Source: an uncultured candidatus Porisulfidus sp. (GTDB lineage Bacteria > Pseudomonadota > Gammaproteobacteria > Poriferisulfidales > Poriferisulfidaceae). Taken from it: a stretch of DNA of 64,000 nt. Positions 16,069 to 21,091 of this stretch are shown here, piece by piece. Location of the stretch: positions 1,600,001 through 1,664,000 of the forward strand of contig OZ241993.1 in NCBI GenBank assembly GCA_965204575.1. The letters run 5' to 3'. Numbering within the stretch: the stretch's first letter is position 1; each line of letters opens with the position of its first letter. The notes under the pieces were generated by a model. The model searched no databases. It saw only the letters and a program-made list of their open reading frames with translations, and was not told the DNA's origin. Made by a program: the position numbers and the translations under genes.

Positions 16069-17808
16069 CTAAAGCGACTCGATGTGTTGGATGTTCAACA
16101 TGCAGGATCGGTGCCCCTGATACTCATCCACGCTCAGTTCGTACACTAGCCTGAACCGAGAACTCTCCGGATCCCAGTCGAAGCGGTCGTGAGAAAACGC
16201 CATGGCCTTGATTCGGCGTTCCGGATGTCCGATTGGATTGAGATGGAACCGAGTGTGGGCACCCTTGAAAGTCCGACGATCCTGAATCTCGAACTCGCCC
16301 TCGAACAGCGGCGGCAGGAAATCCCTTCCCCAAGGATGGCCGAGTACGGCGAATTCTGCATTTTCAAGCGTCAATTCATCGCTAGCCAGTTCGCCGTCCG
16401 TCTCAATGGTCTGGCTCGGCCGCACGCCCCCTAACGCTTTCGAGACAGCCTGTTCCAGCAGAGCCTGAAATCGCTCCAGCCGACTTTCCTCCAACGTCAA
16501 CCCCACCGCCATCGCATGGCCCCCGTAACGCTGCATCAGCCCTGGCTCCGCCTGCTCCACATCGACCAGCGCGTCCCGGAGGTTGAGGCCCGAAACCGAG
16601 CGCCCGGACCCTTTCAAAAGGTTGTCCTGACTTTGGGCAAACACGATGGTCGGCAAACCGCACCGCTCCTTGATGCGCGACGCGATGATGCCCACCACAC
16701 CCTCGTGCCAATTCGGCCGGTAAAGGCATAGGCTCATTGCCTGGTCGGTTTCAAGGGACAACTGTTCGACCTCGCGCAACGCTTCGGCATGCATCGAGCC
16801 TTCCTCGTCACGCCGCCGGGTGTTGATCTGATTCAACTGCTCGGCGAGATCGTGGGCTTCGACACGGCCTTCCGCAAGGAGGCACCGGATTCCGATCGCG
16901 ATGTCTTCCATTCTCCCGGCCGCATTGATGCGCGGCGCCACCGCGAATGCCAGGTCCGTGCTGCCGACCTGCCTCGGGTCGCGTCTGCCGTAGCGAAGAA
17001 GAGAAACGATCCCGGGAGCCCCCCGACCTTGCCGGATACACCGCAACCCATGTTCCACCAGAATTCGGTTGTTCCGGTCCAGCGGCACAACATCGGCCAC
17101 CGTGCCCAGCGCCACCAGGTCCAGGAACTGAGCCATGTTTGGTGCTTCGATGCCCTTTTGGGCAAACCATCCTTCCTTCTCCAAGTGCTGGCGCAAAGCC
17201 AGCATCACGTAAAACATGACTCCGACACCCGCAAGAGCCGTGCTTGCAAAACTGTCGGGGGGGCTGTTTGGGTTGACGATGCAATCAGCCTCGGGCAGAT
17301 CGTCACTTGGAAGGTGATGGTCGGTAATCAGCACCCGGATGCCACGCTTGCGGGCCTCTGCCACTGCCGCCTGGCTCGACATCCCATTGTCGACCGTCAC
17401 AATCAGGGCGGGATCTCGCTGCTCGACTTCCTCCATCAATTCCGGGCAGAACCCGTAGCCGTGCTGGAAACGATCCGGCACCAGATAGTCCACATTCCCG
17501 TAGCCCATCGCATGCAGGCTGCGTATCGCGACGGCCACGCCTGTCGCACCGTCCGCGTCGTAATCGCCAACCAACAGAATGTGCCCGTCCTCGCGCATCA
17601 CGGAATGCATCATTTCTGCCGCCTGAACACAGGCTGGGAATTCGTTGACCGAGTGTAGCTGCCGCAGCGACAGTTCAAGCTCGTCCGGATCGGTGATTCC
17701 GCGCTGGGCGAACACCCGCCGTTGTAGCGGCGGCAAGGCCTGAAGCGCATCCAGCGCTTCTGGAGAAGCGCTCCTGCGGGTGATTTTGGGTTGAGGCCGA
17801 GTATTCAA
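16069..17808 (-). CDS. recJ: ssDNA-specific exonuclease RecJ
   Basis: GDYDADG, TVDNG, TDHH, LGTVADVVPL, PRINAAGR, GSGRS, GGHAMAVG; TTG start, exact start uncertain. Confidence 0.95.
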   Translation of the reverse strand: MNTRPQPKITRRSASPEALDALQALPPLQRRVFAQRGITDPDELELSLRQLHSVNEFPACVQAAEMMHSVMREDGHILLVGDYDADGATGVAVAIRSLHAMGYGNVDYLVPDRFQHGYGFCPELMEEVEQRDPALIVTVDNGMSSQAAVAEARKRGIRVLITDHHLPSDDLPEADCIVNPNSPPDSFASTALAGVGVMFYVMLALRQHLEKEGWFAQKGIEAPNMAQFLDLVALGTVADVVPLDRNNRILVEHGLRCIRQGRGAPGIVSLLRYGRRDPRQVGSTDLAFAVAPRINAAGRMEDIAIGIRCLLAEGRVEAHDLAEQLNQINTRRRDEEGSMHAEALREVEQLSLETDQAMSLCLYRPNWHEGVVGIIASRIKERCGLPTIVFAQSQDNLLKGSGRSVSGLNLRDALVDVEQAEPGLMQRYGGHAMAVGLTLEESRLERFQALLEQAVSKALGGVRPSQTIETDGELASDELTLENAEFAVLGHPWGRDFLPPLFEGEFEIQDRRTFKGAHTRFHLNPIGHPERRIKAMAFSHDRFDWDPESSRFRLVYELSVDEYQGHRSCMLNIQHIESL

Positions 17809-17902
17809 AAAACAGTGTGCTCGAATCTACAGCCACCCTAGGAATTCAGGTGGGTGAGCCGCAGGTTGGATTTTACAGGACTGCTTCCGACCGTATTCCG
17901 AC

Positions 17903-18190
17903 CTAAGCAGCCACGATTCGTTCGATGTTAATTTTGTGCTCCAAATCGCGCGACTGGGCAAGATCGAAAGCCAACTGCATACCGAGCCACGTTTCAGGGG
18001 TCGAGCCGAACGCCTTCGATAGACGGTAAGCCATCTCAATGGAAACGGATGCTTTCTCGTTGACCAGATTAGAAAGCGTCTGGCGTCCGACCCCCAGCCG
18101 ACTGGCAGCTTCTGTCACCGATAGGCCCAGAGGTTTCAAACACTCTTCCCGCACGATGATGCCGGGATGCACAGGATTTTTCATTGCCAT
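17903..18190 (-). CDS. higA: HigA-family (Xre HTH) antitoxin, now separated from its RBS and toxin by an insertion
   Basis: MAMKNPVHPGIIVREECLKPLGLSVTEAASRLGVGRQTLSNLVNEKASVSIEMAYRLSKAFGSTPETWLGMQ. Confidence 0.9.
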   Translation of the reverse strand: MAMKNPVHPGIIVREECLKPLGLSVTEAASRLGVGRQTLSNLVNEKASVSIEMAYRLSKAFGSTPETWLGMQLAFDLAQSRDLEHKINIERIVAA

Positions 18191-18195
18191 TTCAG

Positions 18196-18219
18196 GGAAA
18201 TTATGTATGAAAGTTGACA
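18196..18219. repeat. Terminal inverted repeat at the tnpB 3' end
   Basis: GGAAATTATGTATGAAAGTTGACA; the reverse complement of 18199-18219 equals 19488-19508 exactly. Confidence 0.92.
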
Positions 18220-18330
18220 GAGGATTCCTCGCCAACTTTCACCATTTCTTGACGCTTCCCAGGCCGACTGTGGCGGGATGCCCCGCCGGTGTCGCCACCT
18301 CCACGTCCAGTCGCCCCATTCCCGAAGGCC
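18196..18330 (-). ncRNA. Putative TnpB guide-scaffold RNA (omega/reRNA) region
   Basis: Hairpins GGCGGG-gcat-CCCGCC (18272-18287) and TGAAAGTTGGC-GAGG-aat-CCTC-t-GTCAACTTTCA (18208-18241) overlap the tnpB 3' end, where TnpB scaffolds are normally encoded. Boundaries are inferred. Confidence 0.5.
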
Positions 18331-19459
18331 AAGATGTTTAATGCGGCGTTCACATCCGCATCGTCCGCGTGCCCGCAAGCGGTGCACTTGAAGTCTGTTC
18401 CATTTCTGTTTTCTCATCGACGTGCCCGCATGAATGGCACGTCTGGCTAGTGTACGCCGGATGCACATGGCGCATTTCCATCTTGTAGTTCAGACACAGC
18501 TCCAGCGTGCCCCATGCGCTGGCCAGGATCTTCCGGTTGAGTCCTGACTTCTGTTTCACGTTCTTGCCGGGTTTCTCCACCGTGCCCTTGGCCGACTTCG
18601 TCATGCCCCGGATGTTCAGTTTTTCTACGTAAGCGACATCGTACTCGGAGGCAATGCTCTTGCTGACGTGGTGCGCCCAGTTGAGGCGGGCGAAGCGTTC
18701 CGCCTGGTACGCCTTCTGCAACTTCACCTTGGTGATCGCCCTACGGTTGCTTCCCTTCACCTGCCGTGCCATCTTGCGCTGGTAGCGCCTACGTTTTGCC
18801 ACCTTCCTCCCCAAGTCCGGGCCCGGGTACTTCGTGCCGTCCGAAAGAACCGCCCAACCATTCTCGTTTACATTGCGGTCGATTCCGACTTCCCGAATGC
18901 TGTGCGGAAGACTCGCTTCCGCCTGGACTTCATAGGTCAGGTAGGCGTACCACTTGCCGCATTCGTATCTGATCCGCCCGGACTTGAACTCGCCGTCCGG
19001 GTACGGATTGTTGCCGACCAGCTTCATCCAGCCGACCTTCTACACGAGCAGGCTTTCTCCCGCTACTCGTGCTGATTGATAATCAATCGGAAAACTTGGA
19101 ATAGTGCTGTACTTGCCGTGAAACTGCGGCAGTTTCCGGTTCAGTTTCCCGCCGGTCTCCCGATCCTTGAAGAATTCCTTGTAGGCCGTTTCGATAGGCT
19201 TCAAAGAGGTCCGGACCGCTTTTGACGAATAGCCCTGCAGCCACTTCGTCGTGCCATCCTCCCTCCGCATGACGGTGAAGACATGACACAGCGAATAGTG
19301 CCGAAAGTCCGGCTTGATTCCGAATTCGTACTCGTCCCTGAGCTTCCCGACCATGTGGTTCCAGACGAAGCGGCAGGCCCCGGCGGTGCCGTGCAACTGC
19401 TGGTTTTTTCGTGCAGAACCCGGATGCAGGCGGTAGCGGACGGTGCGGGGGACTTTCAT
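18201..19459 (-). pseudogene. tnpB: TnpB RNA-guided endonuclease, disrupted by one in-frame TAG and one 1-bp deletion
   Basis: N-terminal RYRLHP...GACRFVWN; in-frame TAG at 19040-19042 followed by KVGWMKL. RuvC-I GIDRN, RuvC-II VEKLNIRGM, TSQTCHSCGH. Restoring one A in the run at 18409-18412 gives KNRNGTDFKCTACGHADDADVNAALNIL (RuvC-III), ending at TAA 18201-18203 inside the TIR. Confidence 0.93.
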
Positions 19460-19487
19460 AGGAAGATTGTCTTCAAGGCTCCCTATT

Positions 19488-19511
19488 TGTCAACTTTCAT
19501 ACATAATTCCC
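19488..19511. repeat. Terminal inverted repeat at the tnpB 5' end
   Basis: TGTCAACTTTCATACATAATTCCC, i.e. GGGAATTATGTATGAAAGTTGACA on the minus strand. Confidence 0.92.
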
Positions 19512-19525
19512 CATTCCAGTATCTC

Positions 19526-19582
19526 CTGGTGGTAATCAAGACAGGCAACATCCAAGACCTTCCCCTCCTCGAATCGAAATGT
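19526..19582 (-). pseudogene. higB: 3' remnant of a HigB (RelE-like) toxin gene
   Basis: Translates TFRFEEGKVLDVACLDYHQ, matching the HigB C-terminal pattern (TFRF...DV..LDYH-stop). It is directly followed by AGGAGA, the original higA RBS; no upstream toxin coding sequence is recognisable. Confidence 0.7.
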
Positions 19583-19675
19583 CCTGATTATTTGCTTATT
19601 GTTGGTGTCTATTGGCAACAGTCAACCTGAATCCGGACAAATCCCCTTGCTAAAATTGTTTTCAGGCTCACATTC

Positions 19676-21091
19676 ATGACCGAAAAAATCCTTTTCCTGA
19701 CCGGGAAGCTTGCCGAGCGGAGCCTGCATCGCGTGCTGGAATCCATGCAACCGACGGACTTCGACTACGAAGTTCGCCAGGTCGGCGCGAGCGTTGCCGC
19801 GCTGATGACCCCCAAGTTGATCCAGAAACGGCTTGAACTCCCTCCAGGAATCGACCGCATCCTGCTTCCCGGCCGAGTGCGCGGGGATCTGGAACCACTG
19901 GAAGCGCAATTCGGAGTGCCGGTCGAACGGGGTCCCGATGAACTCAAGGATCTTCCCACCTATTTCGGTCGAGCCGCGATGGCGGAAGATCTGACCCGTT
20001 ACGATGTCCGGATCTTCGCCGAAATTACCGAAGCGCCAAACCTTGACCTAGACGAAATCCTGGCCGAGGCCCGCCGCTATCAGGAAGACGGTGCCGACAT
20101 CATCGATGTCGGCTGCCTGCCGGGAGTGGAATTCCCGCATCTGGCCGAAACCGTGCAAATGCTCAAGCAGGAAGATTTCGTCGTGAGTGTCGACTCGCTC
20201 GAAACGCAGGACCTACTCACCGGGGGGCAGGCCGGTGCGGACTTTCTCCTGAGCCTGAAGTCGGACAGCCTGTGGGTTGCCGACGAAGTCGAATCCGTCC
20301 CTATCCTGATCGGCGACAGCAACACAGACCTTGAGTCCCTGTACGCCTGCATTGAAAACTGTTTGGAGAAAGACCAACCGTTTATCGCCGATCCGATCCT
20401 GGATCCCGTCCATTTCGGCTGCGCCGACTCTATCGCCCGGTACGTTGAACTCCGCCGGCGCTATCCAGATATTCAGATGATGATGGGCATCGGCAACCTG
20501 ACCGAGCTGACCCATGCGGATACGGCCGGGATGAATGCTCTCCTGTTCGGCCTGATCTCCGAACTGAAAATCCAATACGCACTGACCACCCAAGTCAGCG
20601 AACACTGCCGGACTTCACTGCGTGAAGCGGATCGTGCCCGAAGAATCATGCGGGCTGCTGCGGCTCATGGAATTCCCCCAAAGGGCATCGACGACCAGTT
20701 GATGATGCTGCACGAGCGACACCCATTCCCATACAGCCCGGAGGAAATCGCCGAATTTGCCGCCCAGGTGAAAGACCCCAATTTCCGAATCCAAGTCGCC
20801 GAAGATGGCGTTCACCTGTACAATCGGGATGGTGAACTGATTCATACGGATCCGCTCGACTTCTATCCGGACCTGAACCTGGACGACGATCCCGGCCACT
20901 TGTTTTATTTGGGCATTGAACTGACACGGGCTCAGATTGCATGGCAGCTTGGCAAACGTTACGAGCAGGACGAAGATTTCCTGTGGGGATGTGCAGTGAC
21001 GGCGTCAACCAAGGATCTGTCGGCTTTCAGGGAAGTCGGCCCTACCCGCCAAAAACACAAGGACGCGATCAAACATAGGAAGGATTCCTGA
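19676..21091 (+). CDS. Dihydropteroate-synthase-related pterin-binding protein (methanopterin pathway, Orf20-like)
   Basis: LFLTGKLAE N-terminus, GADIIDVGC, VSVDS, DPILDP, GIGNLTELT, H.FYLG.EL.RA, YEQD. Extended -10 TGCTAAAAT at 19648-19656. Confidence 0.8.
   Translation: MTEKILFLTGKLAERSLHRVLESMQPTDFDYEVRQVGASVAALMTPKLIQKRLELPPGIDRILLPGRVRGDLEPLEAQFGVPVERGPDELKDLPTYFGRAAMAEDLTRYDVRIFAEITEAPNLDLDEILAEARRYQEDGADIIDVGCLPGVEFPHLAETVQMLKQEDFVVSVDSLETQDLLTGGQAGADFLLSLKSDSLWVADEVESVPILIGDSNTDLESLYACIENCLEKDQPFIADPILDPVHFGCADSIARYVELRRRYPDIQMMMGIGNLTELTHADTAGMNALLFGLISELKIQYALTTQVSEHCRTSLREADRARRIMRAAAAHGIPPKGIDDQLMMLHERHPFPYSPEEIAEFAAQVKDPNFRIQVAEDGVHLYNRDGELIHTDPLDFYPDLNLDDDPGHLFYLGIELTRAQIAWQLGKRYEQDEDFLWGCAVTASTKDLSAFREVGPTRQKHKDAIKHRKDS

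Follow-up and report, generated by a model that had tools for sequence, protein, structure and literature searches.

The window analysed here is a stretch of 64,000 nucleotides from contig OZ241993.1 of an uncultured candidatus Porisulfidus sp. (assembly GCA_965204575.1, positions 1,600,001 to 1,664,000 of the forward strand). On its minus strand, between a remnant of higB and the antitoxin gene higA, lies a 1316-bp element (window 19511..18196) that carries a pseudogene of tnpB, which encodes an RNA-guided nuclease, between terminal inverted repeats (TIRs). An initial annotation of this DNA, made from the letters alone, had proposed a candidate omega-RNA whose last hairpin uses the TIR itself and whose guide reads into higA. 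The follow-up analysis identified the segment 18330..18196 (minus strand) as the likely scaffold of a TnpB omega-RNA in a non-autonomous IS1595-family transposon, a reading to which we assign a probability of roughly 0.7. The observations behind it are the anatomy of the element, the insertion with its empty site, structural conservation and covariation, specificity for the right ends of tnpB elements, cognate transposase-bearing elements and a motif in the flanks; the ends of the RNA, a pseudoknot, the use of the flank as guide, a target-adjacent motif (TAM) and cleavage are predictions built on these.

The element and its insertion site

The whole element was delimited by its TIRs, an orthologous occupied site and an empty-site contig. 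Two arms of 25 nt each (18195-18219 and 19488-19512), 1.3 kb apart, were complementary at 24 of 25 positions, and by this complementarity the left TIR was placed at 19488..19511 and the right TIR at 18196..18219 (minus strand). These were flanked by the two copies of an 8-bp target duplication, CTGAAATG on the right (18188..18195, minus strand) and CTGGAATG on the left (19512..19519, minus strand), the latter with one substitution by comparison with the orthologous occupied site. In that site, on a contig of a metagenome-assembled genome (L040), CTGAAATG flanked both sides and the duplication was perfect. A 31-kb contig from a DNA sequencing run (X6), whose source organism was approximately 8% diverged from the window, joined 18192 directly to 19517, omitted 1324 nt (1316 plus 8) and read GAGATACTGAAATGGCAATGAAAAAT on the minus strand. 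The perfect duplication in L040 and the empty site in X6 therefore define the element as 19511..18196. The TIR-based hairpin and the flank that had been described in the initial annotation stood as given, while the boundaries of the element were refined by these two alleles.

No transposase gene was found within the element by open reading frame (ORF) analysis and Pfam search. IS1595-family transposases were present in 13 of the 15 congeneric genomes searched, with a match to NF033547 of 200.6 bits. Two of the congeneric elements could be delimited at both ends: L111 measured 1271 bp and comprised a transposase gene, the TIR GGGAATTATAGCGATTGTTTGACA and the duplication ATTTCGGA, and L101 measured 2680 bp and carried a transposase gene, a methylase-HNH passenger, the type II TIR GGGAATTATGTAGCAAAATCTGCAAG and the duplication AAATGGCC. 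Since the element lacks its own transposase and the TIR types of the tnpB elements are shared with these transposase-bearing relatives, the tnpB elements are best understood as non-autonomous IS1595-type derivatives that are mobilised in trans. The earlier attribution to the IS1595 type was thus borne out by both the 8-bp duplications and the cognate elements. Membership of IS200/IS605 was ruled out by the presence of TIRs and duplications and by the lack of any match to the Y1 transposase profile PF01797 in the genome, which is 98.75% complete.

The only IS1595-family transposase gene of the genome itself (L020, C1:1081540-1082530) was frameshifted into pieces of 203 and 103 amino acids. It was followed by a DNA methylase gene, and its left end, GTGAATTATAAAGAAAGGTTGATGA, resembled the TIRs of the tnpB elements; no right TIR was found at this locus. 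Elsewhere in the genome, a 565-bp element (C1:16578-17142) had type II TIRs and the perfect duplication AAAATCGC and contained neither tnpB nor a transposase gene. This element resembles a miniature inverted-repeat transposable element (MITE) and may carry a small passenger. In one congener (G012), a 499-bp element with GGGATTTATGTAGGTAACTTGACAGG-type TIRs (locus L106, 2461-2959) adjoined an IS1595 transposase element, and several TIR types occurred together within a few kilobases there.

tnpB in the window and in related copies

ORFs, Pfam matches and alignment with L040 placed the tnpB pseudogene at 18201..19459 (minus strand); its read-through frame enters the right TIR and ends at 18201. 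The gene consisted of two in-frame pieces and a shifted tail. Compared with the orthologue in L040, it had a TAG codon at 19042-19040, where L040 has CAG, and a 1-nt deletion near 18412; the two genes otherwise differed by 127 substitutions and by no further gaps. HTH_OrfB_IS605, OrfB_IS605 and TNB domains were recognised above cut-off on the two window pieces (PF12323, 30.8 bits; PF01385, 46.8 bits; PF07282, 29 bits). The family profile NF040570, with a cut-off of 100 bits, scored 204.4 bits for an intact paralogue and 206.2 bits for the orthologue, and the protein aligned to the TnpB of ISDra2, a solved TnpB-like chain, with an E value of 1e-23. Residues D194, E279 and D369 and the cysteines C341, C344, C359 and C362 were invariant in five intact paralogues; guided by that alignment, we read the former as the RuvC D-E-D triad and the latter, in a CxxC..CxxC arrangement, as a zinc finger. 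Judged by these sequence comparisons, the omega-RNA region lies at the 3′ end of a true tnpB.

Seven copies of the element were present in the 1.8-Mb genome, at identities from 100 to 71%, and tnpB was intact in five of the seven (411-429 codons). The protein of the window copy is dead, and the RNA of this copy could act only with the TnpB of intact paralogues that share its scaffold and its end cassette, such as those at genome positions 834213-835472 and 443506-444765. A scan detected a promoter-like site, TTGACA-16-GACAAT (10 of 12 positions), at 19466..19493 on the minus strand, 7 nt 5′ of the tnpB ATG; its first hexamer, the putative −35 box, is the inner TTGACA of the left TIR.

Genome-wide, 16 tnpB loci were found in three families, and in each the ORF enters an inverted terminal repeat. 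All three families had inverted ends and, where the ends were clear, 8-bp duplications, such as CTATAAAT (B1) and ATAATAGG (C4). A terminal hairpin that uses the inner part of the TIR was likewise found in all three.

A conserved candidate omega-RNA scaffold ending in a TIR-built hairpin

The motifs that had been quoted as an omega-RNA scaffold were all recovered on the minus strand at their reported positions, beginning with GGACGTGGAGGTGGCGAC from 18308 and continuing with GGCGGGgcatCCCGCC, GTCGGCCT and GAAGCGTCAA. By conservation, folding and a covariance model, the conserved scaffold was assigned to 18246..18330 (minus strand), with an outer stem GGCCUUC/GAAG.GUC around two small hairpins. 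This segment overlaps the last tnpB codons, as had been anticipated. It is followed by the terminal hairpin (18203..18245, minus strand), defined by folds and covariation, whose base is AUG:CAU. The 5′ arm of this hairpin, TGAAAGTTGGC (18241..18231), is internal to the element; the 3′ arm, GTCAACTTTCA (18218..18208), lies inside the right TIR, in agreement with its earlier description as the inner half of the TIR.

Homologous right ends were gathered from the genome, 19 species-representative contigs and 11 metagenome contigs, giving 35 ends with 32 distinct terminal modules. The first 85 to 90 nt of the predicted RNA were near-invariant, with a mean pairwise identity of 93.1%, compared with 81.3% for the 300 nt of coding DNA upstream. 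Beyond the shared sequence ending in CGUCAAGAAAUGG, at least five unrelated TIR cassettes followed, and the identity of the terminal modules fell to 65.2%. The minimum free energy (MFE) fold was nevertheless a hairpin with the inner TIR as its 3′ arm in 31 of the 32 distinct modules. Against shuffles that preserved mononucleotide composition only, as did those used for the left ends and for the six control ends below, the terminal modules had a mean z-score of −2.9, and 21 of 32 fell below −2.

Compensatory change was then scored over the homologous ends. With 33 sequences aligned by MAFFT, 90.4% of cells were paired, compared with 37-51% when partners were slid, and 10 of the 19 hairpin pairs had changed on both sides. 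An alignment of 34 sequences fitted to the model, a procedure that itself favours the structure, gave 89.5% paired cells (36-48% with slid partners) and 15 pairs changed on both sides, a count reached by none of 500 shuffles; 11 of these lay among the 19 pairs of the hairpin. The internal arm thus covaries with the TIR over at least five cassettes, as expected from the earlier suggestion that tnpB and the TIR had co-adapted rather than met by chance.

These observations bear on the possibility that the complementarity was inherited by chance from a palindromic, MITE-like ancestor that tnpB had entered, leaving a relic without function. The stop codon and frameshift of the window copy, the frameshift in the only IS1595 transposase gene of the genome and the existence of MITE-like elements with these TIRs would all suit such a history. 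It would not, however, account for the maintenance of the hairpin in unrelated cassettes by compensatory and wobble changes, for the intact tnpB of most paralogues or for a scaffold more constrained than the coding sequence, and we regard it as very improbable.

A covariance model built from the relatives matched window 18196-18330 (minus strand) at 161.5 bits and ended on the last base of the element; the window row was among the 33 training sequences of the model, so this match holds by construction. Most other copies scored between 126 and 162 bits, and three scored lower (A2, 83.4; A6, 81.7; A7, 81.2). Applied to the other two tnpB families of the genome, B and C, the model gave only 12.7 bits (E 0.65) for L023 and no match in family C. 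Of the low-scoring copies, A2 (genome approximately 436960-437000) was without the GGCGGGGCAUCCCGCC hairpin, and A6 (approximately 262690-262720) had a single, different hairpin in that place. The scaffold may be able to do without its second inner hairpin, or A2 and A6 may be decaying copies.

The hairpin could instead be a feature of the transposon end that acts at the level of DNA or mRNA, either as a fold-back that blocks read-through or as a third, subterminal transposase site. Its 5′ arm does carry a repeat of the inner TIR that has the same orientation as the left end, and TIR-involving stems were also present in two transposase-only relatives, at the right end of L111 (z −2.2) and the left end of L109 (z −1.9). 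Among the tnpB elements, however, the hairpin was confined to the tnpB-distal end, and left ends (n = 17) were unstructured, with a mean z-score of −0.18. A comparable hairpin was also absent from all six ends examined of four elements that have type II TIRs and no tnpB (L101, L108, L106 and the 565-bp element; z 0.08, −0.42, −0.77, 0.48, −1.95 and 0.05). Mismatches within the terminal hairpins were biased to G.U, which made up 67 of 471 predicted pairs, and the sense strand of tnpB folded more stably than the antisense strand in 23 of 32 modules (Wilcoxon p 0.003); both results therefore point to an RNA on the tnpB strand. Finally, the base of the hairpin joins the conserved scaffold to the outer TIR and covaries with it, AUG:CAU becoming AUC:GAU in one cassette. 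A role confined to the transposon end is accordingly unlikely, and a structure formed in the omega-RNA remains our preferred explanation of the hairpin.

A second element of structure is predicted between the scaffold and the last bases of the element. In the alignment, GGGAAU (18323..18318, minus strand) can pair with the final six bases of the TIR (18201..18196), which read AUUCCC in relatives and AUUUCC in this copy, and 99% of the cells of this helix were paired in the MAFFT alignment, with single, G.U-compatible changes and no double changes. From this helix, a pseudoknot GGGAAU:AUUUCC is predicted.

The 5′ arm was also considered as a guide directed against the element's own TIR. The pairing of the arm, the pairing of its base with the scaffold and the conserved bases after it led us to reject this candidate.

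The flank as candidate guide and target-adjacent motif

The 20 nt that follow the end of the element on the minus strand (18195..18176) read CTGAAATGGCAATGAAAAAT and consist of 8 nt of the target duplication and 12 nt of the start of higA, exactly as the initial annotation had stated. The empty allele in X6 carried CTGAAATGGCAATGAAAAAT without interruption and had ATA directly before it. In the window, this ATA lies at 19520..19522 (minus strand), 5′ of the left duplication, and it would abut the guide-matching site in an empty allele. From the sequence, CTGAAATGGCAATGAAAAAT is a candidate 20-nt guide, with which TnpB would be predicted to cleave empty alleles.

The flanks of 21 independent insertions with a duplication identity of at least 7/8 (perfect in 11, 7/8 in 10) were compared. 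Element ends were defined by end-anchored alignment; three insertions that duplicated or were orthologous to others were excluded, as were 13 whose target duplications matched less well, and one hand-checked boundary was included. Immediately 5′ of the left duplication, a purine was found at −1 in 21 of 21 sites (p ~1e-6), T at −2 in 13 of 21 and a purine at −3 in 19 of 21, a purine-T-purine (R-T-R) bias that may be slightly affected by the scoring of duplications, which tolerated boundary shifts of up to 3 nt. In 20 of the 21 sites these three bases included no C; T followed by a purine was present in 13 and TA in 8. The mirrored positions on the right side were unbiased (pyrimidine at +1 in 11 of 21 sites, A at +2 in 2 of 21). 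A symmetric transposase preference would appear on both sides, and the one-sided motif is therefore a candidate TAM, for which the initial annotation had looked to the sequence 5′ of the duplication; ATA at the window site is consistent with it. At the element's own right junction, the TAM position is occupied by CC or CCC (CC in this copy).

The same flank bears on a further explanation, in which the hairpin would stabilise or terminate the tnpB transcript at its 3′ end and the flank would supply no guide, the guide coming from another source or not existing at all. Long, GC-containing hairpins at gene ends are what terminators usually look like. No T-run follows the stem, however, and a scan of the minus strand at the right end found nothing resembling a terminator. 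The 8 to 11 conserved unpaired bases that come after the stem fit a pseudoknot, and there would be no reason to expect an asymmetric flank motif unless the flank is read as a target. Two assembled contigs from sponge metatranscriptome runs also bridged the end into the flank: X1 record 1 spanned 17826-18538 at 93% identity, and X2 record 5 spanned 18188-18301 and then continued into 41 nt of the flank of another copy. This is a weak argument, as the two runs were available as assembled contigs only, in which ends and strand are not readable and DNA carry-over is possible. A terminator at this position appears about as unlikely as a DNA-level end feature.

Several observations weigh against the omega-RNA scaffold, and they temper the probability given above. 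The tnpB of the window is broken twice and forms no intact ORF. The metatranscriptome contigs carry no direct RNA evidence and were not counted as transcription. The stems of L111 and L109, which have a transposase and no tnpB, mean that TIR-using stems are not unique to tnpB elements. The sequences compared are kin, so that the shuffle statistics overstate their independence, and the z-scores of the tnpB ends and of the six control ends were taken against shuffles that keep mononucleotide composition only. The stems of the scaffold proper are almost invariant and hence uninformative for covariation, which neither supports nor refutes them, and no Rfam 15 family matched window 17800-19800 up to an E value of 10, with the coverage of this lineage in Rfam left unchecked. 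The changes in the pseudoknot helix are one-sided and wobble-compatible, its 5′ strand falls within conserved codons (FGNG), and the analogous candidate strands of families B (GGGG or GGCU) and C (GGCGCU) are folded into, or lie next to, local hairpins of the MFE structure. The flank motif, finally, could reflect an asymmetric preference of the transposase, only about six complete non-tnpB elements being available for comparison. Two checks that had been suggested with the initial annotation gave results in the other direction: a covariance model built from homologous ends, with a hairpin that is conserved and covarying among homologues, and the sequences 5′ of the duplication over multiple insertions, with R-T-R emerging from the 21 sites.

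Possible exchange of end cassettes between copies

The window copy (A1) and the copy A2 (C1:435784-437062) were 96% identical over the tnpB core and shared the same 1-nt deletion in an A-run. Their end cassettes differed on both sides, with type I TIRs in A1 and type II TIRs in A2. The identity ended exactly at GAAATGG (window 18242) on one side and approximately 9 nt before the ATG on the other. Contigs from X6 had loose ends at 18242 and 18243, the same break point. Judged from these alignments, the copies may have undergone gene conversion or exchanged cassettes.

A proposed mechanism

We propose, as a tentative model that is somewhat less likely to be right than wrong as a whole, that the right TIR is read twice, as DNA by an IS1595 transposase and as RNA in the last stem and one strand of the pseudoknot; that R-T-R is the TAM of TnpB, imposed on a loosely targeting transposase; and that recombination moves end cassettes from one tnpB core to another. 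The steps that follow, from mobilisation to cleavage, belong to the more probable reading given at the outset. DDE transposases of the IS1595 family, encoded outside the element, would move it in trans, reading its TIRs as DNA. Transcription would start at the promoter-like site, which has its −35 box within the left TIR, run through tnpB and cross the right end. In the resulting RNA, the right TIR would serve three times: its inner half as the 3′ arm of the terminal hairpin, the adjoining CAU as partner of AUG in the scaffold at the base of the hairpin, and its outermost six bases, probably, as partner of GGGAAU some 125 nt upstream, in a pseudoknot directly ahead of the guide. That guide would be the flank, 8 nt of duplication and 12 nt of higA.

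TnpB loaded with this guide would cut element-free alleles that have R-T-R 5′ of the site, which would promote renewed copying of the element. An occupied locus would escape cleavage, since the TAM position there is filled by CC or CCC from the TIR. Under the tentative model, only insertions beside R-T-R would gain this nuclease-driven retention. Swapping of cassettes, comprising a promoter and TIR on the left and an arm, loop and TIR on the right, could allow one nuclease lineage to ride several transposase specificities.

Relation to known systems

Cas12 is derived from TnpB, itself a compact genome editor. The association of TnpB with bacterial cut-and-paste (DDE) transposons is known only from a survey. 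In the accessible portions of that survey, six DDE-associated TnpB branches (DDE-1 to DDE-6) with inverted terminal repeats were described, in which tnpB 3′ ends lay at most 250 bp from the transposon end and solo copies with transposase-type ends were taken to be mobilised in trans; for DDE-5, a TA motif was noted 8 bp ahead of the transposon end (Altae-Tran et al. 2023, PNAS, PMC10691335). The main text seen there named IS630 for DDE-6, and IS1595 appeared only as the name of a profile in the supporting information. A 2026 review, as far as its text was available, listed ISL2, IS630 and IS1031 as DDE partners (PMC13565253).

The element studied here resembles the DDE-associated TnpBs in its inverted ends and solo tnpB, and the TA at 8 bp in DDE-5 fits the 8-bp duplication and T-purine found here. 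Set beside the description of DDE-5, inverted ends and solo copies were both present, and TA occurred at 8 of 21 sites and T-purine at 13. A TIR that serves as the last stem of the RNA is a feature of the present element that the accessible text of PMC10691335 does not describe. The initial annotation had rated the novelty of the element too highly: DDE-associated TnpBs with inverted ends, trans-mobilised solo copies and TA at 8 bp already appear in the portions of PMC10691335 available to us. The kind of element is therefore known. Useful new detail comes from the two roles resolved for the TIR, from cassettes that covary and from a flank motif that is one-sided. In a literature search that left most subscription papers outside its reach, no paper was found in which IS1595 was named as carrying TnpB or in which a bacterial omega-RNA had a stem formed by a TIR.

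The closest parallel in RNA structure is found in Fanzor1, whose guide RNAs, in the parts of the report at hand, hold TIR bases in their terminal stem (Yoon et al. 2023, NAR, PMC10711439). Both systems combine a nuclease of the TnpB family with a cut-and-paste transposon that has TIRs and target-site duplications, and in both the TIR bases recognised by the transposase form part of the scaffold, in its terminal stem. In contrast to the present element, Fanzor1 as described in those parts is eukaryotic or viral, its pseudoknot is said to have been lost, and its target duplication is short, fixed and within the scaffold. Here, the host is bacterial and a pseudoknot-like pairing is seemingly kept; the 8-bp duplication varies and therefore can only be guide, not scaffold.

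Like the TnpBs of ISDra2 (IS200/IS605) and ISXfa1 (IS607), the nuclease encoded here belongs to the TnpB family, and its predicted RNA overlaps the 3′ end of tnpB and reaches the right end. A long-range pairing just 5′ of the guide would also be common to both, with pseudoknot positions −130 and −3 in the ISXfa1 RNA, in the portion of PMC10711439 consulted, and a predicted −128..−123 with −6..−1 here. Elements of the ISDra2 and ISXfa1 types, however, have no TIRs and no duplication, use a Y1 or serine transposase and insert at a fixed motif (4-5 nt in IS200/IS605) which also serves as TAM, whereas the present element has TIRs and an 8-bp duplication and its genome has no Y1 transposase.

With IS1595 insertion sequences that carry passengers, the element shares the 8-bp duplication, ends starting GGGAATTAT and the carriage of passenger genes, exemplified by the methylase-HNH gene of L101. 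It differs from them in having lost the transposase and in carrying an RNA-guided nuclease with an RNA that re-uses the end. In the IS1595 family, the ISNwi1-type end reads ggnnatTAT.

With its 34 related ends and at least five interchangeable TIR cassettes, this lineage constitutes a natural experiment in which one sequence would serve both a transposase and a nuclease-bound RNA. It yields a concrete proposal for a TAM, R-T-R 5′ of a variable 8-bp duplication, with self-avoidance built in, and it offers a bacterial counterpart to the TIR-containing guide RNAs of eukaryotic Fanzors. The consequence for the locus itself is modest: a dead copy beside an orphan higA in the small genome of a sponge symbiont.

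The flanking higBA locus

The gene directly downstream of the element, higA (17903..18190, minus strand), was identified by TIGR02607 (101.7 bits, cut-off 47.7) and the Pfam domain HTH_3. On the other side of the element, ORF analysis and comparison of alleles defined a higB remnant of 42 codons (19490..19618, minus strand), preceded by a stop codon (window 19490-19680). Profile searches with the remnant gave no family match; we read its sequence as resembling the C terminus of HigB. Since higB is only a remnant, higA looks like an orphan antitoxin gene. The last codons of the remnant were changed by the insertion, from ..QEILKWQ* in the empty allele to ..QEILEWGIMYES* in the window. The insertion now places 1.3 kb between the higB remnant and higA, and the expression of higA may depend on read-out from the element.

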